A stretch of 64,000 bases of DNA from Bacteroides sp. (GCA_017466635.1 JAFTTU010000050.1:8690-72689), one strand, 5' to 3'. Positions 24,821-37,646 are shown, numbered from the stretch's first letter. Made by a program: numbers and translations. The notes: a model not told the origin generated them from the letters alone.

Positions 24821-26995
24821 CTATATCTCTTGTCTCTTAATCATCTCCGCAAAAAGCCCGCCTTTTTCCTTCAACGCCTCGTAAGTCCCTTCTTCGGCAA
24901 TGCGTCCTTTGTCGAGCACAATGATGCGGTCGCAATGACGGATGGTGCTGAGACGATGGGCAATGACTACACGGGTACATCCCATCTTGTCCAGATTGTC
25001 GGACACCATCTTCTGACTGACATTGTCCAAGGCACTGGTAGCCTCATCGAAGAACAGGATGGAAGGCTTGTTGAGCAAGGCACGGGCGATGAGCAAACGT
25101 TGTTTCTGTCCACCACTGAAACCGCCTCCACCTTCGCTGACAAGGGTGTTCATTCCCATCGGAAGAGCTTCGATATCCTTGTCGATACCTGCCAAACGAG
25201 CGGCTTCCCATGCATCATCCCGTGAACTCCATGGTGCGGTAATGGTAATATTACTGAACACATCACCCGGGAAAAGGCTTCCACTCTGCAAACATGTACC
25301 TATTTTCTGGCGCAAGCTGCTCTTGTCTACCTCATTCAAATCATAGTCGTCGTAATAAACGGCTCCCATTTGCGGCGTCTCGAAGCCCAACATCAAGCGC
25401 ATCAAGGTACTTTTCCCACAACCGGATTTTCCTACGATTGCCACATATTCTCCCGGATGGAATTTCAGTGATACATCATCCAGAATCCAAGGCGTATCTT
25501 CCGAATAGCGGAAAGACAAATGGCTGATTTCGATGGCCCCACTCAAGAACTGCACCTGTTTGGATTTTTCATCCACTTCGGGCACAGCTTCCATGATAGG
25601 CTTGGCCTGTTTCAACAAAGGCTCCATGCGCGAGAGTTGGGGAGCAATCCCAATCAAGGCGGTAAATGCACCACTTACCATTCCGTATGCAGCCGTAAAA
25701 GCGATGAAGTCGGAAGGAGAAACCTGACTCTTTACGGCCGTAAAGTAAATGTATGCCATCCCACCCAAGTTAAGCAATACCATCAAGGCACCCGAAAGTT
25801 TCAGCAACAAAGGAGGATTGAATTCCAGGCGGGCATTCTCCCGATACGTCTGCAACCATCGGGTAAAGGCACGCTTTTCAGAGCCTGTCAGCTTGATTTT
25901 CTGCACACCGTTGATGAGGTCGAATATCAGGGAAGTCAACTTGGCAGAAACAGCGATAATCTGCTTGTCCTGCTTCCGTTGAAACCAAAGCATCGCCAGT
26001 GTCAACAAGAATTGCCCGAAGATGATGGTCATCCCCGGCATCATCAAGGATTGGGCATAACTCTTCATCTGAAAGACATATACGATGGAAAATACAGCTG
26101 TAATGGAAGTACTTACCAACATATCGTTCGCCAAGTCGCACAAACGGCCTACACTCATAATGCGCTCGTTCAGTTCACCCGATGCATACTTCATGAAAAA
26201 CTTTGCCTTGAGCAAGAATGTACGTGCCATGACGGCAGGTTCTATCCGCACACTGACCAATTCCTTCAGACGCTTCAACATCCAGTCACGTATCAAATTG
26301 AAGAGAATGTCACCGATGGTCGCCCCTATCAGCAATGCCGCCACCGGAAGGATATCGCTTTTCGTACCGCTCGGTATCACGGTATCGAACATCTGTTTGT
26401 TCACGTAAGGAACCAACATCCCCATGACCGCAATCAAGCCGGAAACAAGAAACAACCGGACAATGTCTTTTGCATTGAACGACTTGGCCATGAATGCGAG
26501 CAAATCGCCCATTCCTATTTTCCGCATGGGCAATGCCGGATAGAAACAGAGGGCTTCGGGTTTCAAGTCCTTTTTCATGCGTTTGGAAGTCACCTCCACT
26601 CGAAGACCTTCCTTATTAATATAGGTATAGGAGGCTTTCATACGCGTCGGTATCAAGGCTACCCATTTGCCTTCCCGGTCATAGCCCAACATCGGCCCTA
26701 CAGCCATCTTCCACCACTTGCCTTTCAGCTCCACCCGGCGGTACATGATTCCCCTCGGATTCAGAATCTGAGCCAACTGCTCTTCCATCGTGAGGAAAGG
26801 ATTCTCTTCGTCCAACTCGAAGTCATCCACGATGTCCAGTGCGGCAAGCACCTCCCTCACCGCATGACTTCCGGAAGCCGCTTTGCCCTTCAAGGCCGAC
26901 TGCAAGCCCACTTCCTCCACAAACTGCCCGACCGCCTCATGCAAGTGCTGCTGCTCTTGCTCCAGTCTTTTGTCTATTTGCTCCTTGAATAACAT
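24821..26995 (-). CDS. NHLP/NHLM bacteriocin-system ABC transporter, non-proteolytic subunit
   Basis: N-terminal domain with R.V.L...WW...GPML but no QxxxxCG; ABC membrane domain; GKSGCGKST, FSGGQKQR, DEATSALDN. Confidence 0.85.
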   Translation of the reverse strand: MLFKEQIDKRLEQEQQHLHEAVGQFVEEVGLQSALKGKAASGSHAVREVLAALDIVDDFELDEENPFLTMEEQLAQILNPRGIMYRRVELKGKWWKMAVGPMLGYDREGKWVALIPTRMKASYTYINKEGLRVEVTSKRMKKDLKPEALCFYPALPMRKIGMGDLLAFMAKSFNAKDIVRLFLVSGLIAVMGMLVPYVNKQMFDTVIPSGTKSDILPVAALLIGATIGDILFNLIRDWMLKRLKELVSVRIEPAVMARTFLLKAKFFMKYASGELNERIMSVGRLCDLANDMLVSTSITAVFSIVYVFQMKSYAQSLMMPGMTIIFGQFLLTLAMLWFQRKQDKQIIAVSAKLTSLIFDLINGVQKIKLTGSEKRAFTRWLQTYRENARLEFNPPLLLKLSGALMVLLNLGGMAYIYFTAVKSQVSPSDFIAFTAAYGMVSGAFTALIGIAPQLSRMEPLLKQAKPIMEAVPEVDEKSKQVQFLSGAIEISHLSFRYSEDTPWILDDVSLKFHPGEYVAIVGKSGCGKSTLMRLMLGFETPQMGAVYYDDYDLNEVDKSSLRQKIGTCLQSGSLFPGDVFSNITITAPWSSRDDAWEAARLAGIDKDIEALPMGMNTLVSEGGGGFSGGQKQRLLIARALLNKPSILFFDEATSALDNVSQKMVSDNLDKMGCTRVVIAHRLSTIRHCDRIIVLDKGRIAEEGTYEALKEKGGLFAEMIKRQEI

Positions 26996-26998
26996 AAC

Positions 26999-29134
26999 TT
27001 AATCACATGCCACCAATTGTTTATACACGCCATCCTTCTCCAACAACTCCTGATGAGTTCCTCTTTCTACCACTTCACCCTTTTCCAATACCACAATTTC
27101 ATCACAATCGCGGATGGTACTAAGTCGGTGGGCTATCACTATCAACGTCACCCCCATCATGCGGATGGAGTCCATGATACGTTTTTCGGTTTCTGCATCC
27201 AAGGCACTGGTTGCTTCATCCATGATGAGGATGACCGGCTCGCGTGCCAAGGCTGCAGCTATCTCAATACGCTGCAACTGACCTCCCGAAAAGTTCTTTC
27301 CGCCCTTCACCAAACGGGTATTGAAACCTTCCGGACGCGACACCACATCTTCCCGTATCTGGGCATCCCGACAAGCCAATACCATGGCAAAATCTTCGAT
27401 GGAGGAATCCCACATCTTGATGTTGGCCATGATGGTATCGTCAAACATCACCACATTCTGGTCAATCATGGCTATCGAATTCGTGAATTCATCGTCATTG
27501 ATTTCTTGGCGGTATCTTCCGTCGAACAGAATTTCACCTTCCCAAGGTTGATACAAACCCGTAATCAACTTGGCTAATGTACTTTTACCGCATCCCGATG
27601 TGCCCACAAATGCCACACTCTTGCCCGGTTCTACCGTCATGGAGAAATTCTTGATTTGCGGTTGGGAGAAGCTGTTGTAGCCAAAGGATACATTCTTCAA
27701 CTCGATACGTCCACGCAATTTTCCACTTCCGTCCTGTCTTGCTTCCGTACTCTGTTGTTGCACCGGATATTTCAGCACGTCTTCCACACGTTCCATCTGA
27801 GTACGCATCTCTATCATCATTTCCGTTGCCGAGAACAACTGTTGGGCAGGAGCCGTAAATCCCGTCATAAATCCTTGGAATGCCAACAGCATACCGATGG
27901 TAAACTGGCCGTCCATAATCATATAGGCTCCCAATAGCAGGATGGCATTACCCGTCAAGGCTTGCAACAACTCCGGCCAAATGCCATAAAGTTGGTCGCG
28001 ACGGTCGGCACGGGCTTCCGAATTGTGCATATTGGTAAAGTAACCCACCCAATGATTGAAGAAACCGTTTTCGGCACCGGCCGCCTTGATGGTTTCGATA
28101 TTGTCCAGGCATGACATCGTTACCCCATAGTACTTTCCCATGTCCCTTTCAAAGACACGGGTCACATCTACTCGCTTTGTTGATATATAACTGGCCAACC
28201 CAATATTCAGCAACATGGCACCCAAGCCTATCAATGTCAGCCAAACACTATAGCGGAGCATGAAAGTGAGATACAGCACCAACAACATCATTTGAATGGC
28301 CAATGGAGCCAACTGCTGCACCAATGTAGCTGCAATGTTCTGATTGGATTTCTGCCGGAGAATCAAATCACCCACATAGCGTTGGGAGAAGAAGTCCATC
28401 GGCAACCGCAGCAGATGCCAGAAGAAGTTGCTGTTGGCTTCAAGAGCCATGGCCGCATTGTACTTCCGGCTATAAATACCTTTCAACCATTCGGTCAATA
28501 CATTCACTCCTATCACCGCCACGAAAGCTGCCATGAAGGGCTTGAACCAATCCGGATTCTTGCCGCTCAAGATATCGTCCATGAATATTTGCGAGAACAA
28601 CGGAGTGGCTATCCCAACGATTGCCGCCAACAAGCCGGTCACAAAGATAAAGAAAGCAGCCGCCCGGGTATTCTTCAGTCTTCGCTTCACAAAGCCCAAA
28701 ATGGAAGCACGCGAACCTCCCGGCTGAAAAGATTTTGTAGGCTCAAACACCAAGGCAATGCCTGTAAAGGCCCTGTCGAATTCTTCTTGAGTAACTTTGA
28801 CCTTTCCTCGCCCCGGGTCATTCAAGTAATGGGTATTCCCCCTTTTCCCCTTGTATACTACAAAGTGGTTGAAGTTCCAATGGATGATGGCAGGAGTTTC
28901 TCCTTGCAGCTCGTCCTCATCCAGCTTATAGGCATTGGCTTCCATGCCGTAGCTTCGTCCAGCCAGAAGCAATTGCTTGGCAGAACAACCGTCACGCGAT
29001 ACGCCACAATCCTTTCGTAGCTGTTCCAACGGCAACCACTTCTTATGATAAGCCAGTACCATCCCCAGCGAAGCGGCTCCGCACTCCACCATCTCCATCT
29101 GCATGATGACCGGTACATTCTTGACTTTTCCCAT
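26999..29134 (-). CDS. NHLP/NHLM-type peptidase-containing ABC transporter (C39 + ABC)
   Basis: Intact C39 catalytic motifs QMEMVECGAASL, HWNFNHFVV, YLNDP; R..CGVSRDG signature; GTSGCGKST, FSGGQ.QR. Confidence 0.92.
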   Translation of the reverse strand: MGKVKNVPVIMQMEMVECGAASLGMVLAYHKKWLPLEQLRKDCGVSRDGCSAKQLLLAGRSYGMEANAYKLDEDELQGETPAIIHWNFNHFVVYKGKRGNTHYLNDPGRGKVKVTQEEFDRAFTGIALVFEPTKSFQPGGSRASILGFVKRRLKNTRAAAFFIFVTGLLAAIVGIATPLFSQIFMDDILSGKNPDWFKPFMAAFVAVIGVNVLTEWLKGIYSRKYNAAMALEANSNFFWHLLRLPMDFFSQRYVGDLILRQKSNQNIAATLVQQLAPLAIQMMLLVLYLTFMLRYSVWLTLIGLGAMLLNIGLASYISTKRVDVTRVFERDMGKYYGVTMSCLDNIETIKAAGAENGFFNHWVGYFTNMHNSEARADRRDQLYGIWPELLQALTGNAILLLGAYMIMDGQFTIGMLLAFQGFMTGFTAPAQQLFSATEMMIEMRTQMERVEDVLKYPVQQQSTEARQDGSGKLRGRIELKNVSFGYNSFSQPQIKNFSMTVEPGKSVAFVGTSGCGKSTLAKLITGLYQPWEGEILFDGRYRQEINDDEFTNSIAMIDQNVVMFDDTIMANIKMWDSSIEDFAMVLACRDAQIREDVVSRPEGFNTRLVKGGKNFSGGQLQRIEIAAALAREPVILIMDEATSALDAETEKRIMDSIRMMGVTLIVIAHRLSTIRDCDEIVVLEKGEVVERGTHQELLEKDGVYKQLVACD

Positions 29135-29142
29135 ACTTCGCT

Positions 29143-29967
29143 TTATTTGGATTGCCGGTTAAACAACAAGTCGAACACAGGACGATTGCGTGTCACAATC
29201 TGCAAGCTGCAAAACGTACCTATCTTCATATTGATGTTTTCTCCCGATTGATGCGACCAACGGATTTTGCTCTTGTCCGATGGATGATCTTCCAGCTTAA
29301 TTTGTACCATAAAGGCTGCTTCCGATGGAAATACCGCCGATGTAAATTCTTCCAATTTGAACAAGTTTTGCGCTTCCTTGGATGATGTAGGAAGTTCGTT
29401 GATGGCGGTAATGCGTCCATACATATAGCCCACTTCCTCCCGCTTCAAATCGCTTGGGGTGGCTTGTACTTCCATCCCCACTTTCAGTTTGCGCAAGTCG
29501 GCATAAGTCACAAAAGCAATCATTTCCTTCAATTGGTTCACTTGGTCGTGTGGAAGCAGATAAACACAAGGCTCCAATGCACTGAACGATTCCTGCTGCA
29601 CCTTGTGAGAAAGCACAACACCCGAATGAGTGCTTCTCAATTCGCGAACAGCATCTTCCGATGTATAACGGAACAAGATGTCTCCCTTCTTTACTTCATC
29701 GCCTTTCTGGACGAAGACTTCCGTAATCCGCCCGTCGAGCGAAGCAGATACATGCATGATTTCCTGATGAGGGAAGGCTATGCCATTGATTTTCACAAAA
29801 TCGCTGATGGTGCTATTGAATGCCCAGACACAGGCAGCAACGACACATAGCAGGATGCTTGTCAACCAAAGATAAAACGAAGGTCCTGTCACCCGGATAT
29901 AGTCACTGATTTTATCCGGAGACTCCAATGTATCCATCGCCTGTTGGCGGAAAAGTTTGTTTCCCAT
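29143..29967 (-). CDS. NHLP-system secretion accessory protein (short HlyD-like, no alpha-hairpin)
   Basis: LFRQQA...LESPD N-terminus, single TM, adjacent lipoyl half-motifs, YG.I and P..LLF C-terminal motifs. Confidence 0.8.
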   Translation of the reverse strand: MGNKLFRQQAMDTLESPDKISDYIRVTGPSFYLWLTSILLCVVAACVWAFNSTISDFVKINGIAFPHQEIMHVSASLDGRITEVFVQKGDEVKKGDILFRYTSEDAVRELRSTHSGVVLSHKVQQESFSALEPCVYLLPHDQVNQLKEMIAFVTYADLRKLKVGMEVQATPSDLKREEVGYMYGRITAINELPTSSKEAQNLFKLEEFTSAVFPSEAAFMVQIKLEDHPSDKSKIRWSHQSGENINMKIGTFCSLQIVTRNRPVFDLLFNRQSK

Positions 29968-29983: not shown

Positions 29984-30826
29984 TTATGATTGGATTCTTA
30001 CAGTAACATTCATGCCTTCCATCAAGCCGACGTTTCCTTTCACCCGGGCACGAACCTGAATCAATCCCTTTTCATCTACCAAAGGGTTCATGCTACAGAT
30101 TTCCCCCTGTTGCACTCCTACCGTGGTAGCTTGCGGAACGATTTCTACCTTTTGTCCCATCTTGATGAGGTGAAGTTCGTTCTCCAACACCTGGAATTCC
30201 ACTTCCATGTTGCTTGTCTGGATGATACGGCAAAAAGGCTCACTGCTGCCTGCCATGTGATGAGGCTTGGCGGTGAGGTTGGCTATCACCCCATCGAAAG
30301 GAGCGACCAATGTAGCATTTTCTATTTCTCTCAAAGCATTTTCCTTCTGAAGAGCAGCTTGTTCGTAACCGCTCTTCACCTTGGCAAGTTTCATCATGTC
30401 GGCAGGTACCTTATCCAAATGGTCAGGGTCATATCCTTGCCCTATCAGAATATCCTGAAGTTCAAGTTTGGCTTGTTCAAGGCTGATTTCGGCTTGACGC
30501 AACTGGCTGTTCAAGGCAAACACTTCCAAATCCGCCAACTTCTGTCCCTTGCCTACTCTAGCCCCGTTCTTCACATAGACATGGGCTATCTGTTCTTGCG
30601 AACGGAAATACAGGTCGGTATAATTGGCTGCTTTTACTTTTCCGGTAGCGGTCAGGCTATTGCTTGGAAGTTCTTTCACTTCGGGCTTGACTTCAGACAC
30701 CACTTCTTCCTGCACATCAACCGGTGTAGTTACCGGCTCTTGCGAAGTGGTAGCTTGCTGACTATTGGTGCTGCATGATGTCATGACCAAGCACACAGTG
30801 GCTAATATAAGGTGTTTTCTTTTCAT
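29984..30826 (-). CDS. Efflux periplasmic adaptor (MFP) lipoprotein
   Basis: Lipobox VMTSC, V.NG..V.KGQ.LA lipoyl motif, alpha-hairpin, APFDGVI, beta-barrel. Confidence 0.85.
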   Translation of the reverse strand: MKRKHLILATVCLVMTSCSTNSQQATTSQEPVTTPVDVQEEVVSEVKPEVKELPSNSLTATGKVKAANYTDLYFRSQEQIAHVYVKNGARVGKGQKLADLEVFALNSQLRQAEISLEQAKLELQDILIGQGYDPDHLDKVPADMMKLAKVKSGYEQAALQKENALREIENATLVAPFDGVIANLTAKPHHMAGSSEPFCRIIQTSNMEVEFQVLENELHLIKMGQKVEIVPQATTVGVQQGEICSMNPLVDEKGLIQVRARVKGNVGLMEGMNVTVRIQS

Positions 30827-30843
30827 AGATTTATTTCTGATGA

Positions 30844-30880
30844 CAAAGGTAAACTTTTTTAGGAATAATCACTATCTTTG
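30844..30880. promoter_or_regulatory. Divergent Bacteroidetes -7 promoter elements (exporter operon and GNAT)
   Basis: TACCTTTG on the - strand at 30844-30851 and TATCTTTG on the + strand at 30873-30880, each ~20 nt from a start codon. Confidence 0.65.
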
Positions 30881-30900
30881 TGACAAAAAAAAACAAGAAC

Positions 30901-31800
30901 ATGGAAACAAATCGCTATACCATCCTTCCTCATACAGCCATCCACCGAGATACGGACGACCTGAATGTGGATTTCTACCTTGACTTGACAGGAGGAAAAC
31001 AAAGCATTGTCTTCGGTCATCCCGAGGATGGATACTTGTTCATTGCCCCGAAAGAGAAACGATGGGCAGTGCGCCATATCTATGTTCTTCCTCATCGTCG
31101 AAATCAAGGTCTTTCGCGTGCTTTGCTCGATGCTGCCGCCCTCTATTGCAAGGATCAGCGAGTGGATTTCATGGTATATCTCACGTACAACAATGATTAC
31201 ACCCACAGATTTCTCGACCGCTATGTACATGAGCGAGGAATGACACCGTGCGTCCCTACCCGACTCTTCATTTTCGAAGACCATAGCTTTTTCCAAAGCC
31301 CCGAATGGCAAAAGACGATGCAACGAATGCAACTCATGACCGAACGGTGGGAAGCCAAAGGAGCCGTAACTGCTCACTTCGATGAATGTCCTGACGAGGT
31401 ATTGGAAAACCTTAAGGCTCTATACTATGAGACAGATGAAGAAAACTATCAAGTGGCAAGCGACATCTGGCCGTTCATCCCCGACCGATACGAGCCGTTG
31501 AGCTTCATTACCTATAAAGAAAACGAACCGATGACTTTTGTCTTCAGTCAACGGTTCGGCAACAGTATTTTGTTTTCAGGCAACCTTGCCTTGAAAAAAT
31601 ATCAGCATAATGGCTGTTTCATCCTCCCTCTCTATCGCTTCATCCAAAGCATAGCAGAAGACACCAGCATAGAGCGCATGACTTGCAAGATAGTGGGTTC
31701 CAATCACGAGGCAGTTCAATTGGCAGAGAATCTATGGTCACAAGCCAAACCTCGCTTTGTGAAGATGCAGGTGTTCGCTCATTTCGTGGAAGAGGAGTAA
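30901..31800 (+). CDS. Tandem GNAT-fold acetyltransferase-like protein
   Basis: Motif A IYVLPHRRNQGLSRALL; second degenerate module LALKKYQHNG ... SNHEAVQL. Confidence 0.7.
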   Translation: METNRYTILPHTAIHRDTDDLNVDFYLDLTGGKQSIVFGHPEDGYLFIAPKEKRWAVRHIYVLPHRRNQGLSRALLDAAALYCKDQRVDFMVYLTYNNDYTHRFLDRYVHERGMTPCVPTRLFIFEDHSFFQSPEWQKTMQRMQLMTERWEAKGAVTAHFDECPDEVLENLKALYYETDEENYQVASDIWPFIPDRYEPLSFITYKENEPMTFVFSQRFGNSILFSGNLALKKYQHNGCFILPLYRFIQSIAEDTSIERMTCKIVGSNHEAVQLAENLWSQAKPRFVKMQVFAHFVEEE

Positions 31801-31854
31801 TCAATAGCCGACTCTTCCTTCCCCTTCACACTTACCGGTGGCTTCGTTCCATGT
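31801..31854 (-). pseudogene. Remnant of an eighth Cys-rich precursor (C-terminal fragment only)
   Basis: Hand translation TWNEATGKCEGEGRVGY* matches the W-x6-C tail of the precursor family; no leader upstream, in-frame stop at 31921-31923. Confidence 0.7.
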
Positions 31855-31910
31855 GAAATCACTAAAACATTTTGCTGCCCCTAAATTGACGCAGAACCAA
31901 CAAAGGCTGC

Positions 31911-32014: not shown

Positions 32015-32200
32015 CTATCTGTCTTTATAACAACGTCCAGCCGACCATACACATCCGTCCTCATGTTTTTTGCACTCGTCTTTCTCCTTAATGCCCGGAC
32101 ACGCACCATTATCCCCAGTAGCCGGCCTCATGCCTCCTGACACTTTCAGCAACTCGTCTTCGGTCAAGGCTTTCTTCTTTTTAATATCTTCCTTTTTCAT
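32015..32200 (-). CDS. Double-glycine-leader Cys-rich precursor P1
   Basis: Leader ...LTEDELLKVSGG; core C-x8-C-x6-CVW-x4-C. Confidence 0.88.
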   Translation of the reverse strand: MKKEDIKKKKALTEDELLKVSGGMRPATGDNGACPGIKEKDECKKHEDGCVWSAGRCYKDR

Positions 32201-32220
32201 CCTATACTTCATTTAAAGTT

Positions 32221-32433
32221 TTACGTAGAAATTTGTTTTCCGGCTGTAGCCGGTTTATCCTTACAAGTCGAGGTAGCCTCGTCCCACACACATGTGCCAT
32301 CCCATCCCTCGCAGTTCTTCTGCTTCTTGAATGTGCTACAGGGCAGGTCAGGTAACTGGCCATGACCTCCACTCACCTTCAGTAGTTCTTCATCGGAAAG
32401 AGATTTTTTCCTATTGTTTCGTTCATCTTTCAT
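32221..32433 (-). CDS. Double-glycine-leader Cys-rich precursor P2
   Basis: Leader ...LSDEELLKVSGG; core C-x8-C-x6-CVW-x6-C; TACATTTG upstream (32464-32471). Confidence 0.9.
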   Translation of the reverse strand: MKDERNNRKKSLSDEELLKVSGGHGQLPDLPCSTFKKQKNCEGWDGTCVWDEATSTCKDKPATAGKQIST

Positions 32434-32573
32434 AACCATACATTTTCAAGATTAACAATGAGACAAATGTAGGCAATAAATATAAACAAAACAACATTTA
32501 TTCAATTTTTTTCATATATTTGCAAAAGAACGTTTTTGATATTATTGTTGAAAAACTTATCATACGAATGCCT

Positions 32574-33866
32574 ATGTTAACCAAATTGTTCGGGTTCAAT
32601 CCCAAAGAAACGACCATCCGCACGGAAATCTTTGCGGGTATTACGACTTTCCTCACCATGTCGTACATCTTGGCGGTCAATCCAGCCATGTTCAGTGTGC
32701 TCGACGGTATGCCTGCCGGAGCTGCCTTTACTGCTACCGCCTTGGCTGCTGTCATCGGTACGCTCACCATGGCTTTTTGGGCCAAACTTCCTTTCGGTCT
32801 TGCTCCCGGTATGGGACTGAATGCCTTCTTTGTCTATACGGTTTGTCTGGGGATGGGTTATCCTTGGCAATTCGCACTTACCGCCGTACTGATTGAGGGC
32901 TTAATCTTCATCCTGCTTACGGTGACGAAAATGCGCGAAGCCATCGTCAATGCCATTCCGCTCAACCTGCGTTATGCCATCGGTGCAGGTATCGGTTTAT
33001 TCATTGCCTTCATCGGTTTACAGAATGCCGGAGTAGTGGTCAATAGTGATGCTACCCTGATTGTATTGGGTGATATCACAACCGGGCCTGCTTTGCTAGC
33101 CATGGTGGGACTTATCATCACGGGATTCCTCTATGCCAAGAACGTGCCAGGTGCCATGCTTATCGGCATCATGGCGACAACACTCATTGGCATCCCGATG
33201 GGGATCACTGAATTCAAGGGAGTATTCTCACAACCTCAATCCATTGCGGACATTTTCTGTCAATTCCAGTGGGATAATATCTTTACGATGGATATGCTGA
33301 TAGTGGTATTCACCATGTTGTTCATGGACTTGTTCGATACGGTAGGTTCGCTAGTCGGGGTATGTACCAAATCGGGGATGATTAACAAGGATGGTAGCAT
33401 CAGCCGTATCAACGAGGCATTTATGGCAGATGCCATTGCCACTACGGCAGGGGCTTGTCTAGGTACTTGTACCACGACGACTTACGTAGAAAGCGCTTCA
33501 GGAGTGGCTATCGGTGGACGTTCGGGACTCACCGCCTTTGTGGTGGTTTGTTGCTTCATCATTTCCTTGTTTCTGTCACCACTCTTCCTGTCCATCCCAT
33601 CGGCAGCTACAGCACCGGTACTGATTATTGTCGGTCTGTTCATGTTGGAGCCTGTGCGTCGGATTGACTTCAGCGACTATACGGAATCCATTCCTGCCTT
33701 TGTGTGTATCATTACCATTCCGTTGGCTTACTCCATCTCCGATGGTATTCTGCTCAGCGTCATCTGTTATGTGCTGATGAATGTGCTTTGCGGGAATTTC
33801 AAGAAACTCACTCCGGCCATGTATATTCTGGCGGTGCTGTTCATCCTGAAGTATTTGTTTATTTGA
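32574..33866 (+). CDS. NCS2/AzgA family nucleobase (purine) permease, accessory copy
   Basis: AGITTFLTMSYILAVNP, APGMGLNAFF, YVESASGV..GGRSGLTA; likely start 32574. Confidence 0.92.
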   Translation: MLTKLFGFNPKETTIRTEIFAGITTFLTMSYILAVNPAMFSVLDGMPAGAAFTATALAAVIGTLTMAFWAKLPFGLAPGMGLNAFFVYTVCLGMGYPWQFALTAVLIEGLIFILLTVTKMREAIVNAIPLNLRYAIGAGIGLFIAFIGLQNAGVVVNSDATLIVLGDITTGPALLAMVGLIITGFLYAKNVPGAMLIGIMATTLIGIPMGITEFKGVFSQPQSIADIFCQFQWDNIFTMDMLIVVFTMLFMDLFDTVGSLVGVCTKSGMINKDGSISRINEAFMADAIATTAGACLGTCTTTTYVESASGVAIGGRSGLTAFVVVCCFIISLFLSPLFLSIPSAATAPVLIIVGLFMLEPVRRIDFSDYTESIPAFVCIITIPLAYSISDGILLSVICYVLMNVLCGNFKKLTPAMYILAVLFILKYLFI

Positions 33867-33874
33867 TAGCAAAA

Positions 33875-33910
33875 TGTCCTGTCCTCCTTCCGAGGAAGGA
33901 GGACAGGACA
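33875..33910. terminator. Strong hairpin between convergent NCS2 permease and P3
   Basis: tgtcctgtcctccttcc / ggaaggaggacaggaca 17-bp perfect inverted repeat. Confidence 0.75.
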
Positions 33911-33924
33911 AACGTTAAAGAGAT

Positions 33925-34119
33925 TCAATAGGTTATCTTTTTATCACCTATACATTTTTCAGTTTCCTTGTTCCACTCGCATCCAAAATTCTCGCATGCT
34001 TCCTGATTCTTCTTATTCTTACATGTAATGGTTATACCAAAATCACCATTACCACCCGTTACTTCCAGCAATTCGTCTTCGGAAAGCACTTTTTTCTTGT
34101 TTGAATTTTCTTTTTTCAT
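33925..34119 (-). CDS. Double-glycine-leader Cys-rich precursor P3
   Basis: Leader ...LSEDELLEVTGG; core C-x8-C-x4-CEW-x6-C. Confidence 0.9.
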   Translation of the reverse strand: MKKENSNKKKVLSEDELLEVTGGNGDFGITITCKNKKNQEACENFGCEWNKETEKCIGDKKITY

Positions 34120-34152
34120 AATCGTACCTGATTAAAATTTTCACGCAGCCAT

Positions 34153-34353
34153 CTACTTGCTGACTGACATTTCTTTTGCCATACAGGTTGAAGTTACCGT
34201 ATCCCATTCACATTCATCACCTCTATTCTCACAATTCTTTTGCTTCTTGACATCCTTACATGGAGGCATCGGACACATGCCATGTCCACCACTTACCTTC
34301 AACAATTCGTCTTCTGAAAGGGCTTTCCTCTTGTTCATCTTATTGTCGTTCAT
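34153..34353 (-). CDS. Double-glycine-leader Cys-rich precursor P4
   Basis: Leader ...LSEDELLKVSGG; core has an extra fifth Cys, then C-x8-C-x6-CEW-x6-C. Confidence 0.9.
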   Translation of the reverse strand: MNDNKMNKRKALSEDELLKVSGGHGMCPMPPCKDVKKQKNCENRGDECEWDTVTSTCMAKEMSVSK

Positions 34354-34370
34354 AAATCTTATGGTTTAAA

Positions 34371-34580
34371 TTACTTTTCCACACACTTTCCGGAAGTACC
34401 ATCCCACTTACACTTATCAAAATCCATGAAAGTACATTGCTTTTTCTTCTTCCGTTCATGACAAGCCTGCACATCACTTTCCGTCAGCGGAGCTCCACTT
34501 CCCAAATCATCCCCTCCCGTCACTTTCAGCAATTCTTCTTCGGAAAGGAGTTTCTTCTTGTTGGACTGATTTTCTTCCAT
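34371..34580 (-). CDS. Double-glycine-leader Cys-rich precursor P5
   Basis: Leader ...LSEEELLKVTGG; core C-x8-C-x7-CKW-x6-C; TATATTTG upstream (34611-34618). Confidence 0.9.
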   Translation of the reverse strand: MEENQSNKKKLLSEEELLKVTGGDDLGSGAPLTESDVQACHERKKKKQCTFMDFDKCKWDGTSGKCVEK

Positions 34581-34737
34581 AATTCAGATTAGATTAAATC
34601 GTTGAATGCACAAATATAGTCTTTTTTTGAGAAAAAGACTATATTATTTGGTTAATTTTTCTCACACCAATCAATATATAATAGCTTGTCATAGAAACTC
34701 CCTATCCAGTATAAAAAAAACAAATCCTGCTTTCAGC

Positions 34738-34810
34738 CTTCAGACCTTTTGATTGTGAATGAGTTGTGCTGAAGGCAAGGTGGTTTCTGCCTTCAGTATG
34801 GCTTCATTAC
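34738..34810 (+). repeat. 73-bp repeat, copy 1 (inverted relative to 41121-41193)
   Basis: Ungapped hand alignment, 64/73 identical; internal ctgaaggca/tgccttcag hairpin. Confidence 0.85.
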
Positions 34811-34923
34811 ACATGTATAATTTTATGTCAAGCTCTTACTCAAGGAAAATAAACGGAATAATTGCTGTTTTCTAAAAAAAAGGCTACATTTGCGCATTCA
34901 TGTATTCAATATAATATATAGGT

Positions 34924-35151
34924 ATGAAAGAGAATCAATCGAGCAAAAAGAAAACCTTGTCCGAAGACGAATTGTTGAATGTAACGGGTGGTGATATGAT
35001 GGGTATGAGACTGCCTGATTTCGGTCCGGTGCCTTGTAGCAGATCCAAGAAAGAAAAAAGCTGTAAGAAGAATGAACATTGTGAATGGAATACAGCATCT
35101 TCGTCTTGTCAGGAAAAGCCCGAGGCTACCGGTAAGCAAATGGCAACGTAA
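34924..35151 (+). CDS. Double-glycine-leader Cys-rich precursor P6
   Basis: Leader ...LSEDELLNVTGG; core C-x8-C-x5-CEW-x6-C; TACATTTG at 34885-34892. Confidence 0.9.
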   Translation: MKENQSSKKKTLSEDELLNVTGGDMMGMRLPDFGPVPCSRSKKEKSCKKNEHCEWNTASSSCQEKPEATGKQMAT

Positions 35152-35186
35152 TATTTGTAGAAGCTAATGGCTATCTTCAAATAGTA

Positions 35187-36614
35187 ATGAAAAATTTCTT
35201 CTACATATTGAAAACCTTGGACGTGAAGTGCAGCTTCGACTATACCCGTGACCTGTTCTTAGCACAAGAAAAGAACCATTCGTTGTGGGGTATCAAGAAG
35301 CTGTTGGAGCACTATGGCGTAAAAGTAACTCCCATCCTGTCCGAAGCGAAATCCATAGATGCTTTGGATTATCCGTTTGTGTGTCAAACGAAGGAAGGAA
35401 TGACGGCATTCACTCGTCCTCCGAAAGACATACCTGCTTTTCTCGAACAATGGGACGGTTATGCCTTGCTTTGCGATGCCTCCCATGCCAAGGAACCTCA
35501 TTATGTCTGGCACAAGTTGAAGGAATGTTTTGTGTATGGCTTACCATGGGCTACATTGGCAGGTGTCGTGCTTACCTCGCTTTGCTTCTTATGGGAGCCG
35601 TTCAGCCTTTCCCGATTGTTGCTTGTCCTGTTCAATGCTATGGGCTTCTATTTCAGTTACCGCTCGGCTGTGGGCGAGTGTGCTGGTAGTTGTAGCGTGG
35701 TGACAGAATCACCGGCCGGCAAGCTTTTCGGTTATAGTTTGAGTGTGATAGGCGTGGCATATTTCGGTGTGTCGTTACTACCCACCTTGTTCATTCCTGC
35801 ATGGATGCACGTGTGGAATTGGATAGCCATCGTTGCATTGCTGATGCCTGTATGGAGCATTGCCCATCAGGCATTCGTACTTCATGCCTGGTGCAAGAAT
35901 TGCATGGTGGTACAGCTGATGGTCATTTTGTCAGCTATCGTAGTCATGACCGGGGACTTCTGCTCATGGGAAACCTTTTCGGTGCAATCTCTTGTTGCCT
36001 TGCCTTCATTCTATCTGTTGGCCGTTTATTTGTTGGACATGGCTTTCAATCATTATAAGATTGTCCAGCACCCCCCAATGGACGGTACAGTACTCCGGTT
36101 GATGCACAATCCCGTGCTTCGCGAAGAAATCCTCCGTTCGGGCAAAAAGGTCGATGCGTCCGAAGTGCCTGATGTGTGGGTGATGAATCCGGAAGGAAAA
36201 GAGGAATTGTTCCTCGCCATCAGCTTGCATTGTGTCCATTGCAAGGAACAGTTCTTCAAGCTTTATAAGGCGATGGAGAAAGGGGAACTGAAAATGTACC
36301 GCATTCGCATAGCCATCAGTCCTTCGCCTCAAGCTGCCAAGGTAATAGAGGCATTGGCAGCTACAGCCATACACGAAAGCATGGAAAAAGCCATCCGCCT
36401 ATTGGCCGAATGGTATGAAACGCAAAACCGCAAGCTGTTCCTTATGTCGGTCAAGAAGAACTTACCGATGGAGGGAGTGAAGGAAGTGTTGGACAGTATG
36501 AACAAGGCGGTAGAACGTTTGGACATAAACGGATTGCCAGCTATGTCGTTGGGCGGTTATGAAATAACCCCTACCATTTTCTGGGCAAAGGTAGAATGGG
36601 ATAGCTTGTCATAA
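35187..36614 (+). CDS. Fusion of inactive C39-like domain, VKOR domain and thioredoxin/DsbA-like domain
   Basis: SLWGIKKLLEHYGV and F.EQWDGYALL (C39-like scaffold without catalytic motif); VKOR ECAGSCSVVTES and WCKNC; Trx CVHC and INGLP. Confidence 0.82.
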   Translation: MKNFFYILKTLDVKCSFDYTRDLFLAQEKNHSLWGIKKLLEHYGVKVTPILSEAKSIDALDYPFVCQTKEGMTAFTRPPKDIPAFLEQWDGYALLCDASHAKEPHYVWHKLKECFVYGLPWATLAGVVLTSLCFLWEPFSLSRLLLVLFNAMGFYFSYRSAVGECAGSCSVVTESPAGKLFGYSLSVIGVAYFGVSLLPTLFIPAWMHVWNWIAIVALLMPVWSIAHQAFVLHAWCKNCMVVQLMVILSAIVVMTGDFCSWETFSVQSLVALPSFYLLAVYLLDMAFNHYKIVQHPPMDGTVLRLMHNPVLREEILRSGKKVDASEVPDVWVMNPEGKEELFLAISLHCVHCKEQFFKLYKAMEKGELKMYRIRIAISPSPQAAKVIEALAATAIHESMEKAIRLLAEWYETQNRKLFLMSVKKNLPMEGVKEVLDSMNKAVERLDINGLPAMSLGGYEITPTIFWAKVEWDSLS

Positions 36615-36621
36615 TCCCTTT

Positions 36622-37236
36622 TTACTCTTGAACAAGCCGATAGAATACATGTGGAACTCTTCCTTCGCGCTTGATTTTCTCCTCCATATACCATTGGCGG
36701 AGTTCAGCGGAAGCCTTGTTTTTCAGCAAGCCGGTTAGCTCGGCATATTTCTTGCAGGTAATGAAACCGTTTTCCTTCAAATGAGCAATCAATAGTTGGA
36801 AGCGCTCTTCCGGTGTGTATTCATCGGATGAAGTCTGGAATGCACGATGAGGCTCCACTCTTTCCAATTTCATTTGCATGCCTATCTTTTTCCGCAAGGT
36901 CTTGCTTGCCTTGAAGTTCACATTGTTGAAACGGATGGACTTGGAGCGTATTTCGTCCTTTTCTTTCACCTTTCGGCTGGTGAGGCTAGCCGAGAAAGTT
37001 CCGATTTCGCCCAACTTCACGTGATACCCTTCTGCAAGATACTCCGCTATGGTATCTTCCAGAAACATGACAACTCCCTGTACGATGGCAGGATTGAACC
37101 CCGTATGATGCGAAGCCCGCTCCATCAAATCCTTCATGGTCTTGGTACCCGAAATCACCAATTGAGGATAAAGTTCCTGCTCTCCCTCCTTGCCCTGCAA
37201 GTTGGGCAACACTCTGAGGTCATACTTTGCTTTCAT
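36622..37236 (-). CDS. Bacteroidetes HU-related DNA-binding protein with C-terminal winged-helix-like domain
   Basis: L.EGYHVKLGEIGTFS and VNFKAS HU-like motifs; GFIT...YAELTGL...A..EL helix-turn-helix tail. Confidence 0.8.
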   Translation of the reverse strand: MKAKYDLRVLPNLQGKEGEQELYPQLVISGTKTMKDLMERASHHTGFNPAIVQGVVMFLEDTIAEYLAEGYHVKLGEIGTFSASLTSRKVKEKDEIRSKSIRFNNVNFKASKTLRKKIGMQMKLERVEPHRAFQTSSDEYTPEERFQLLIAHLKENGFITCKKYAELTGLLKNKASAELRQWYMEEKIKREGRVPHVFYRLVQE

Positions 37237-37454
37237 TTTCTTCTTGTTGGTTAAGCTTGGAATTATACTTCCCTAAGGTTATGTTTATCGGATTATATCT
37301 ATTTCCCATACCTTGTGATATTCTTACTGTTGCTTGGTATTTATATATCATATTATGAAATGTAAATCCTAAATCTTGGGATATACTTATACATGCATAC
37401 AAAAATACTCATAATATGGGAAATACAAGCTTAATGAATGAAAATAGCAGAGGA

Positions 37455-37646
37455 TTACTTTGAGGAACAAGTCTGTCGCTCACTCCAAACACAAGCAACA
37501 TCCTGCTCACAATCCTTTTTCTTCTTATGGTTGTTGCAACTTTTAGGAGGTTCATTTATTTGTAGCGTTACATCAGCATAATCACTATTAATACCACCCG
37601 ATACATCCAACAATTCTTTTTCATTGAGTTCTCTCATATCATTCAT
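37455..37646 (-). CDS. Double-glycine-leader Cys-rich precursor P7
   Basis: Leader MNDMRELNEKELLDVSGG; core C-x8-C-x5-CVW-x5-C; TATCTTTG upstream (37679-37686). Confidence 0.88.
   Translation of the reverse strand: MNDMRELNEKELLDVSGGINSDYADVTLQINEPPKSCNNHKKKKDCEQDVACVWSERQTCSSK

Follow-up and report, generated by a model that had tools for sequence, protein, structure and literature searches.

Four-cysteine C-x-W peptides with double-glycine leaders in Bacteroides sp. as candidate reduced PSI-type modules, and the putative oxidase and exporter encoded with them

The question raised by one locus of Bacteroides sp. is what fold seven short, cysteine-rich peptides with double-glycine (GG) leaders may adopt, how they may be matured and exported, and what they may be for. 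The locus lies within a stretch of 64,000 nucleotides (GCA_017466635.1 JAFTTU010000050.1:8690-72689), referred to here as the window, and all positions are counted from its first nucleotide unless another contig or locus is named. A sequence-only reading had proposed a common scaffold for the seven cores, a two-disulfide fold packed on a tryptophan and reminiscent of a reduced plexin-semaphorin-integrin (PSI) module, and a binding or signalling role in preference to membrane lysis. Taken as one reading, it is on balance probable that the seven are GG precursors carrying a minimal PSI module, oxidised by a VKOR-fusion enzyme and exported by an ATP-binding cassette (ABC) transporter with a C39 peptidase domain.

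Seven precursors with one cysteine scaffold

Seven short open reading frames (ORFs) of 63-75 amino acids (aa) were found, six on the minus strand and one (P6) on the plus strand. In the seven-way alignment A1 each is laid out as a GG leader, then a variable segment and then a four-cysteine core of ~28 residues. The spacing in the list below gives the lengths of loop 1/loop 2/loop 3 in the scaffold C-x8-C-x(4-7)-C-x-W-x(4-6)-C, as read from the translations and from A1.

P1 precursor, 32015..32212, minus strand, 65 aa; core 32024-32107; spacing 8/6/4
P2 precursor, 32221..32439, minus strand, 72 aa; core 32257-32346; spacing 8/6/6
P3 precursor, 33925..34119, minus strand, 64 aa; core 33946-34029; spacing 8/4/6
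P4 precursor, 34153..34353, minus strand, 66 aa; core 34177-34266; spacing 8/6/6
P5 precursor, 34371..34580, minus strand, 69 aa; core 34377-34469; spacing 8/7/6
P6 precursor, 34924..35151, plus strand, 75 aa; core 35029-35115; spacing 8/5/6
P7 precursor, 37455..37646, minus strand, 63 aa; core 37461-37544; spacing 8/5/5

The scaffold that the sequence-only reading had proposed was recovered exactly in 7/7 precursors, at the core coordinates listed, and the core positions invariant in A1 (n=7) were the four cysteines, the tryptophan and a lysine at Cys1+4. The leaders end in a double glycine with the consensus ...L-S-E-D-E-L-L-x-V-(S/T)-G-G and are 18-27 aa long across the seven (27 aa in P1, 18 aa in P7). 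The predicted mature peptides have 38-52 residues with 4-5 cysteines (n=7); the fifth cysteine that had been noticed in P4 is present, 4 residues past the GG site, and is kept in the metagenomic orthologue P0001. They are hydrophilic and charged, as had also been claimed, with a mature grand average of hydropathy of -0.89 to -1.24, 26-39% charged residues and a net charge of 0 to +2 (n=7). The YGNGV box is absent from the seven, and none has the amphipathic or hydrophobic membrane-active core by which class IIa/IIb bacteriocins are recognized. Matches of the seven to bacteriocin-type models of NCBIfam and Pfam covered the leader only and stayed below the cut-offs.

Family search and sequence variation

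Seven paralogues might share a pattern by descent alone, and for this reason the wider family was searched. A word-seeded search gave 74 unnamed proteins, with the scaffold in 59/74, and an exhaustive hidden Markov model search of 1.84 billion cluster representatives gave 153 matches at E <= 0.001, almost all with a GG-type leader; the family comprises at least 150 clusters at 50% identity. With both searches pooled, the scaffold was present in 157/172 short homologues (<100 aa), and loop 1 was exactly 8 residues long in 142 of those bearing it. In the short homologues loop 2 was mostly 4-6 residues (7 in seven, 8 in one), as was loop 3 (mostly 4-6). The scaffold is therefore under strong constraint across sequences sharing only ~25-45% identity.

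The same module was found in tandem in 40 long proteins (100-5132 aa) with 2-21 copies each, 195 copies in total, among which loop 1 was 8 in 181, loop 2 was 5 in 142 and loop 3 was 6 in 170. The loop lengths thus peak at equal values in the peptides and in the tandem repeats. Among the repeat proteins are a subtilase whose C-terminal part carries five copies, several predicted lipoproteins of bacteria and Lys-rich proteins. Three of the Lys-rich proteins (P0076, P0077 and P0116; 360-504 aa) have 4-6 modules of the form C-P-S-H-K-x-S-E-x-C...C-K-W-N...C-Y-K-K, spaced by acidic S-S-E-D-I-P-L-G repeats, and nothing in Pfam was above threshold for these three. Two tandem CCCH zinc-finger proteins (P0121 and P0153) were also caught by the peptide profile through the shared C-x8-C-x5-C spacing, which calls for caution with motif-only searches. 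Two six-cysteine core variants, C-x7-C-x5-C-x-C-x-W-x6-C-x3-C, are encoded at another locus (L028 5732-6303, minus strand); they likely form a third disulfide.

The sequence-only reading had held that positions outside the scaffold vary freely. This is true between paralogues only: orthologues of P1 show focused variation. A set of 29 P1 variants was grouped by leader instead of core, and entropy (n=29) was near zero from Cys1+3 to Cys2 and at four of the first five loop-2 positions (0-0.74 bit), with the Lys-rich block invariant. The variable sites (0.8-3.2 bits) were the eight residues before Cys1, Cys1+2, the x of CxW and the hairpin loop.

In sampled genomes the peptides were scarce. The seven-member profile gave 0 matches in 400 other sampled genomes of the order and a 110-member profile gave 0 matches in 400 sampled genomes of the phylum; 400 sampled genomes of the taxonomic family gave matches in three only, one of them convincing (G490). 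The peptide family is rare in reference genomes and diverse in metagenomes, these being samples from which absence is not proven.

Relation of the core to PSI-type modules

The repeat proteins gave the link to PSI. Pfam PSI was matched above its gathering threshold (23.1) in three of them, at 36.9, 44.0 and 47.4 bits, and these matches span profile positions 1-36 of 52. When 105 peptide cores were aligned by hhalign with 13 repeats from those three proteins, the probability was 96.8% and E was 2.6e-10, and the similarity reached non-cysteine columns, namely the basic loop-1 residues and the D/N/S after the tryptophan. In the Pfam alignment of the repeats, Cys1-4 of the peptides correspond to PSI Cys1, Cys3 (the second cysteine of the first CxxC), Cys4 (of CxW) and Cys6, respectively.

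Among 110 precursors searched against Pfam, sub-threshold matches were found to Paramecium_SA in 20, PSI in 17 (all 17 at E <= 0.1), Trypan_glycop_C in 17 and PSI_PlexinA-B in 4. The best PSI match among the 110 members had E 2.3e-4. For the seven of the window, Paramecium_SA reached 18.4-20.2 bits on three of them against a cut-off of 21.2, and the best PSI-related match was PSI_PlexinA-B with E 0.044 (P3).

The PSI likeness claimed by the sequence-only reading was thus supported in its structural half, by profile homology and by the helix-and-hairpin models described below, and did not hold as formal Pfam PSI membership. A reduced PSI-type module, akin to the N-terminal two-thirds of a PSI domain, is the assignment of the core that the profile comparisons supported. 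By the same comparisons the core is outside Pfam PSI as defined, having four instead of eight cysteines, no CxWC, no C-terminal third and sub-threshold scores. The eight-cysteine PSI pattern with CxWC was not found in the seven, which have four cysteines (five in P4), and their tryptophan is followed by S, D, N or E and in no case by Cys.

Predicted fold and disulfide bonds

In AlphaFold2 models of the P2 and P7 precursors the leader was of low confidence and the core had a predicted local distance difference test score (pLDDT) of 77-87. The modelled core is a short helix ending at Cys2, then a two-stranded hairpin, one strand of which bears C-x-W and the other Cys4; in the P2 model the helix is at 40-45 and the hairpin at 50-53/58-61. 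Structure prediction for these two precursors followed by Foldseek thus gave a helix and hairpin with semaphorins and plexins ranked first, in line with the PSI-like fold that had been proposed. Ranks 1-10 were all semaphorins or plexins, and the C-terminal domain of a variant surface glycoprotein (VSG) stood at rank 20. Against the Protein Data Bank (PDB) nothing was found by Foldseek at E <= 0.001, as expected for ~30 residues, and the absolute scores were weak. The structural matches are given weight because the only ones found belong to the same families that the sequence profiles had named. The Atlas structure search also lists the cluster of PTTG1IP, a protein with an N-terminal PSI domain.

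The likeness might instead be convergent, the bacterial peptides being a fold family of their own, unrelated to PSI, VSG C-terminal domains and ciliate antigens. A four-Cys/Trp pattern in a cysteine-dominated domain of ~28 residues could arise repeatedly, and the profile's capture of the CCCH proteins P0121 and P0153 shows that spacing alone attracts unrelated proteins. Convergence is nevertheless judged unlikely: the hhalign similarity (E 2.6e-10) extends beyond the cysteine columns, the loop-length peaks are equal in peptides and repeats, and among 48,161 chains structural matches were confined to two families, both of them already indicated by the sequence profiles.

For the disulfides of the reduced PSI-type core, integrin beta3 was taken as the reference. 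Its PSI pairs are C5-C23, C16-C38, C26-C49 and C13-C435, and its motifs are C13-Q-Q-C16 and C23-A-W-C26 (PMC12383024). Pairing of Cys1 with Cys3 and of Cys2 with Cys4, a guess of the sequence-only reading, agrees with the mapping onto these disulfides, and by this analogy the two bonds would be the PSI pairs 1-4 and 3-6.

A quite different account of the four cysteines would have them bind metal in a zinc knuckle of the CCCH type, or stay reduced. CCCH zinc fingers do have the C-x8-C-x5-C spacing, and the profile matched two proteins of that type. Against this, the histidine that serves as fourth ligand in CCCH fingers (C-x7-8-C-x4-5-C-x3-H) is absent, Cys3+4 being E, A, K, T, G, T or E in the seven; an export leader is present; the exporter and the VKOR/thioredoxin oxidase adjoin, and this oxidase co-occurs with the peptides across diverged loci; and the homologous PSI modules are disulfide-bonded. 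Disulfides are favoured over free thiols or metal because the VKOR/thioredoxin oxidase is co-encoded, and metal binding or reduced cysteines are considered highly improbable.

The co-encoded putative oxidase

Directly 3' of P6 lies the following gene.

35187..36614, plus strand, 475 aa, C39-like/VKOR/thioredoxin-like fusion

The protein matched Pfam VKOR at 37.0 bits (cut-off 27.5) and Peptidase_C39 at 21.5 bits (cut-off 22), and has a C-terminal thioredoxin-like CxxC. Its cysteines 165, 169, 236, 239, 349 and 352 are invariant in 38 homologues and make up the VKOR-thioredoxin relay. Probably the fusion is a dedicated disulfide oxidase. The C39-like part was also considered as an active protease and was rejected, as Cys15, placed by MAFFT under the nucleophile of the exporter, is not conserved in the family. 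The C39-like/VKOR/thioredoxin architecture was present in 38/400 other sampled genomes of the taxonomic family.

A search for related loci with the oxidase protein in a collection of genome contigs found no relative. Elsewhere the oxidase was found beside CxW peptides in three other loci (L015, L028 and L036), with at most 56% identity in two of them, and more distant relatives accompany other peptides.

L015 (close relative), 475-aa oxidase of the same length in a syntenic locus; the same cassette, five peptide genes, no permease between
L028, oxidase 56% identical; three adjoining CxW peptides, two with six cysteines
L028 neighbours, AraC-type regulator, two fusion proteins, outer-membrane factor, two ABC genes
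L036, oxidase match at E 1.9e-123; one CxW peptide adjoining
L030, L038 and L044, oxidase far more distant; other Cys-rich GG-leader peptides

Hydropathy gave six spans for the oxidase, one above the canonical VKOR-thioredoxin enzymes, with the extra span before the VKOR core. The N-terminal and C-terminal domains would lie on the same side of the membrane because of this extra span. In the 38 homologues, lysine plus arginine averaged 1.95 and 1.13 in the loops on the side of the catalytic cysteines and 5.2 in the stretch past the last span, and 0.26, 0.0 and 0.55 in the opposite loops. From this charge pattern we weakly infer that the relay faces the cytoplasm and that oxidation may precede export. 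With an inward-facing oxidase a leader-binding domain would be useful, and peptides exported in one step through a channel of fusion protein and outer-membrane component could still be oxidised.

When the C39-like domain (residues 1-113) and the P2 precursor were modelled as a complex, the score was 0.39, the best of 3 controls having 0.01; the runs share at least 85% of contacts, and the partner has a pLDDT of at least 63. The docking mark used is passed by 58/80 solved complexes and by 2/110 mismatched pairs, and at scores <=0.60 it is passed by 7/80 solved complexes and by both of those passing mismatches. The prediction lends weak support to docking of the leader by the C39-like domain, and the pass may only echo solved C39-leader complexes.

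Exporter genes, transcription units and neighbours

Upstream, the minus strand carries the four-gene operon of a putative exporter, as follows.

24821..26995, minus strand, second ABC subunit, lacking a peptidase domain; TIGR03797 693.5 bits (cut-off 709.4)
26999..29134, minus strand, C39 ABC exporter, predicted to cut the leader after GG and to export; TIGR03796 905.7 bits (cut-off 853.3), and Pfam C39 and ABC
29143..29967, minus strand, HlyD-type membrane-fusion protein; TIGR03794 134 bits (cut-off 156), and Pfam
29984..30826, minus strand, second fusion protein (predicted to be a lipoprotein), at the head of the exporter operon; Pfam HlyD_D23/HlyD_3

Cleavage after GG and export are established for this transporter family and would by analogy take place at this locus.

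The motif TAnnTTTG, which we take to be the Bacteroidetes -7 promoter consensus, stands at -25 of the first gene of the exporter operon and 32-40 nucleotides upstream of P2 (32 nucleotides), P5, P6 and P7.

32464..32471, minus strand, TAnnTTTG of P2
34611-34618, minus strand, TAnnTTTG of P5
34885-34892, plus strand, TAnnTTTG of P6
37679-37686, minus strand, TAnnTTTG of P7

None precedes P1, P3, P4 or the oxidase gene, the background of the motif being 0.48 per kb per strand. This distribution indicates four putative transcription units, namely P5-P4-P3 (P5 first), P2-P1 (P2 first), P6-oxidase and P7; P6 and the oxidase form one unit in that the motif precedes P6 and none precedes the oxidase gene.

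Three further features lie among or beside the peptide genes.

30880..31800, plus strand, GNAT-like acetyltransferase, separating the exporter operon from the peptide genes
31801..31860, minus strand, eighth precursor, now a remnant reduced to its tail (Trp, Cys4 and on to the stop)
32520-33866, plus strand, xanthine/uracil-family permease, between the P2-P1 and P5-P4-P3 operons

The GNAT-like gene is kept in L015 and absent from L028/L029. The array appears to have been rearranged recently, because the syntenic L015 lacks the permease and the P3-P5 genes. The remnant at 31801-31860 touches the GNAT stop codon, and its tail is near-identical to that of the metagenomic homologues P0046/P0050. 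These two homologues have a P1-type leader joined to a P3-like core, a composition that suggests shuffling of leaders and cores by recombination at the GG boundary. No stand-alone ORF with multiple transmembrane (TM) spans was found between 23 and 42 kb.

A ninth member is encoded on another contig of the same genome.

L026 1501-1740 (G000 contig C138), plus strand, solitary, 79 aa

Its leader is of another type and its last loop is 17 residues long, and it is flanked by genes for a cupin-like lipoprotein and another lipoprotein. Distant members were also seen in tandem arrays of three or four genes at L033 and L034. A short ORF 3' of these arrays (L033 1185-1391, L034 959-1180) has a CarboxypepD_reg-like N-terminus, and its end equals the last ~35 residues of the outer-membrane-protein-like ORF (L026 2-976) before the solitary L026 peptide; this short ORF may be a deletion scar at a common insertion site.

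Proposed pathway and function

The precursors, their scaffold, the family and the genetic linkage to exporter and oxidase are seen in the sequences themselves, and the pathway proposed here builds on them. Each precursor has a GG leader of 18-27 residues, and the mature peptide after it is hydrophilic and 38-52 residues long. The ~28-residue core would fold as a Lys-rich helix between Cys1 and Cys2 and a C-x-W/Cys4 hairpin, with the disulfides packed on the tryptophan. The co-encoded membrane oxidase would form these disulfides, its dead C39-like domain docking the leader, and the NHLP-type C39 ABC transporter with the fusion proteins would cleave after GG and export the folded mini-protein. 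The mature product would then be a protease-resistant secreted mini-protein.

Several results weigh against this pathway or against the role proposed below. None of the single peptides was above any Pfam threshold, and the 23.1 bits of PSI were reached by 0/7. When PDB sequences were searched by means of the core profile, a VSG chain was the sole match, and a non-significant one (E 4.6). The P2 and P7 models were built on one shared 110-sequence alignment and hence are not independent. The inward topology of the oxidase comes from hydropathy and the positive-inside pattern only, and contradicts the canonical VKOR orientation. In hydrophilicity the window peptides far exceed bacteroidetocins A and B. 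An immunity gene, a gene for a 5-TM protein and an outer-membrane factor were not found in the window; the genome is a 55%-complete metagenome-assembled genome, and an outer-membrane factor or immunity gene may lie elsewhere.

As to function, the sequence-only reading had preferred binding or signalling to lysis. The hydrophilicity it appealed to was confirmed, and this preference was drawn from hydrophilicity only. Since PSI domains are mostly structural wedges, the PSI analogy predicts no ligand. Binding and antibacterial action are not alternatives because bacteroidetocins, of the characterised systems the nearest one, kill by binding BamA (Matano et al. 2021, PMC8546649). A receptor-binding antibacterial role of the bacteroidetocin kind is predicted by analogy as a guess, its chance being set a little short of even. 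The hypervariable patch on the fixed scaffold would then be made up of the four sites that vary among the P1 orthologues, from the N-terminal tail to the hairpin loop. The strain-variable spread, copy-number turnover, tandem arrays, hypervariable patch and want of a nearby sensor resemble features of bacteroidetocins.

Secreted signals, that is, pheromones or pherotype markers for which the scaffold is a display frame, would be another use of the same peptides. Export by GG leaders is common to Gram-positive pheromones, and weak ComC-family matches came from the leader; the peptides are hydrophilic and near-neutral, their variability lies in one patch, no immunity gene was found, and an AraC-type regulator is next to the L028 peptides. 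Set against these are that no sensor kinase, response regulator or receptor gene was found beside the peptide genes, that seven paralogues with copy numbers shifting between relatives (five in L015) are more like a toxin array, and that a Bacteroidales peptide quorum-sensing system of this sort is not known and was not found in the literature searched. A signalling role is accordingly given a small chance. Other roles (adhesion, decoy, host or protist interaction) take up what remains after the antibacterial and signalling ones.

Significance

In the literature searched, no description of this peptide family was found, and nothing relevant on PSI-type bacterial peptides or on VKOR and C39 with bacteriocins; the fold is not reported before for bacteriocin-like exported peptides. 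Through this family a bacteriocin-like system of bacteria is linked to a cysteine module that is elsewhere a feature of surface proteins of eukaryotes, namely PSI domains, VSG tails and ciliate antigens. If the fold holds, ~28 residues with two disulfides and four hypervariable sites would make a minimal display or engineering scaffold. Should the peptides prove antibacterial, Bacteroidales would have two classes of peptide toxin, bacteroidetocins and this one, with very different chemistry. The family is also a substrate set on which the mechanism and orientation of the oxidase may be tested. The predicted fold and disulfide map are open to experimental check, and with at least 150 clusters the family of exported peptides is sizeable and new to the literature searched here.

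A bolder combination is quite unlikely to be right in full. In it, no free-standing PSI-type protein known would be smaller than these peptides, which would be secreted two-disulfide mini-domains sharing ancestry with VSG tails, ciliate antigens and animal PSI; they would be folded in the cytoplasm under guidance of the leader by an inward-facing VKOR before one-step export, and, as hypervariable effectors that bind receptors, they would be aimed at bacteria, or at protists or host surfaces with the same module.

Comparison with known systems

Bacteroidetocins, proposed as class IIf bacteriocins of Bacteroidales, combine a GG-leader peptide of four cysteines with a thiol oxidoreductase and a peptidase-ABC exporter, and their loci show no obvious immunity gene; the class is described by precursors with a GG leader whose mature part has 35-50 aa and at least 2 Cys (Coyne et al. 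2019, PMC6671954). The window peptides are like them, by their published description, in the host order (presumably Bacteroidales here as well), the GG leader, the mature length of ~35-50 aa, the four cysteines and an oxidoreductase and peptidase-ABC in the locus, and also in the want of an obvious immunity gene and in a patchy, strain-variable distribution. On the precursor side they have the features of class IIf (leaders of 18-27 aa, mature peptides of 38-52 aa, 4-5 Cys), and on the locus side a peptidase-ABC exporter and a putative thiol oxidoreductase are present. They differ in that bacteroidetocin leaders have 15-16 residues and the mature peptides 12-13 hydrophobic residues, one being poorly soluble (PMC6671954). 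Bacteroidetocin loci need a 5-TM protein, which this locus lacks; the exporter here is of the two-subunit NHLP type with two fusion proteins; and bacteroidetocin activity has been shown experimentally.

The locus also resembles NHLP/Nif11 systems in its exporter, TIGR03796 being above and TIGR03797 and TIGR03794 just below their cut-offs. Its leaders of 18-27 aa are different, without the long NHLP or Nif11 leader domains, and the Nif11 leader model TIGR03798 gave E 0.15 only, over the GG end of the leader. Export systems of the NHLP/Nif11 type were reportedly treated by Haft et al. in 2010.

Among Gram-positive systems the locus may be set beside that of sublancin. In the window, one fusion protein carries the VKOR and thioredoxin-like parts, whereas the sublancin system has a DsbB-type oxidase and a separate thioredoxin-like protein, its peptide is glycosylated and helical, and its host is Gram-positive. 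Sublancin 168 of Bacillus subtilis (sunA-sunT-bdbA-sunS-bdbB) is a GG peptide with two disulfides, a C39-ABC and its own oxidoreductase pair.

With PSI (PF01437) the core has in common the C...C...C-x-W...C framework and the conserved core tryptophan; the short helix and then the hairpin of two strands seen in its models would match the order in PSI. A PSI domain has ~50 residues and eight cysteines in four disulfides, including the CxxC and CxWC pairs, whereas the peptide core has ~28 residues and four cysteines, without PSI Cys2, 5, 7 and 8 and the C-terminal third. PSI sits within large eukaryotic surface receptors; here the module would make up the whole mature bacterial peptide. The VSG C-terminal domain (PF10659; PDB 5m4t, 2jwg) and the Paramecium surface antigen repeat (PF01508) both share the C-x8-C-x5-C-x-W module and the basic loop 1. 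These are eukaryotic and membrane-anchored, in large coats or tandem arrays, and come without a leader, an ABC exporter and a dedicated oxidase. What was known is thus the combination of a GG-leader Cys-rich peptide, a C39-ABC and a thiol oxidase in Bacteroidales, through bacteroidetocins; what is new is the core as a candidate minimal module of the PSI/VSG-tail type and a family of at least 150 clusters that have no Pfam or NCBIfam match above cut-off.

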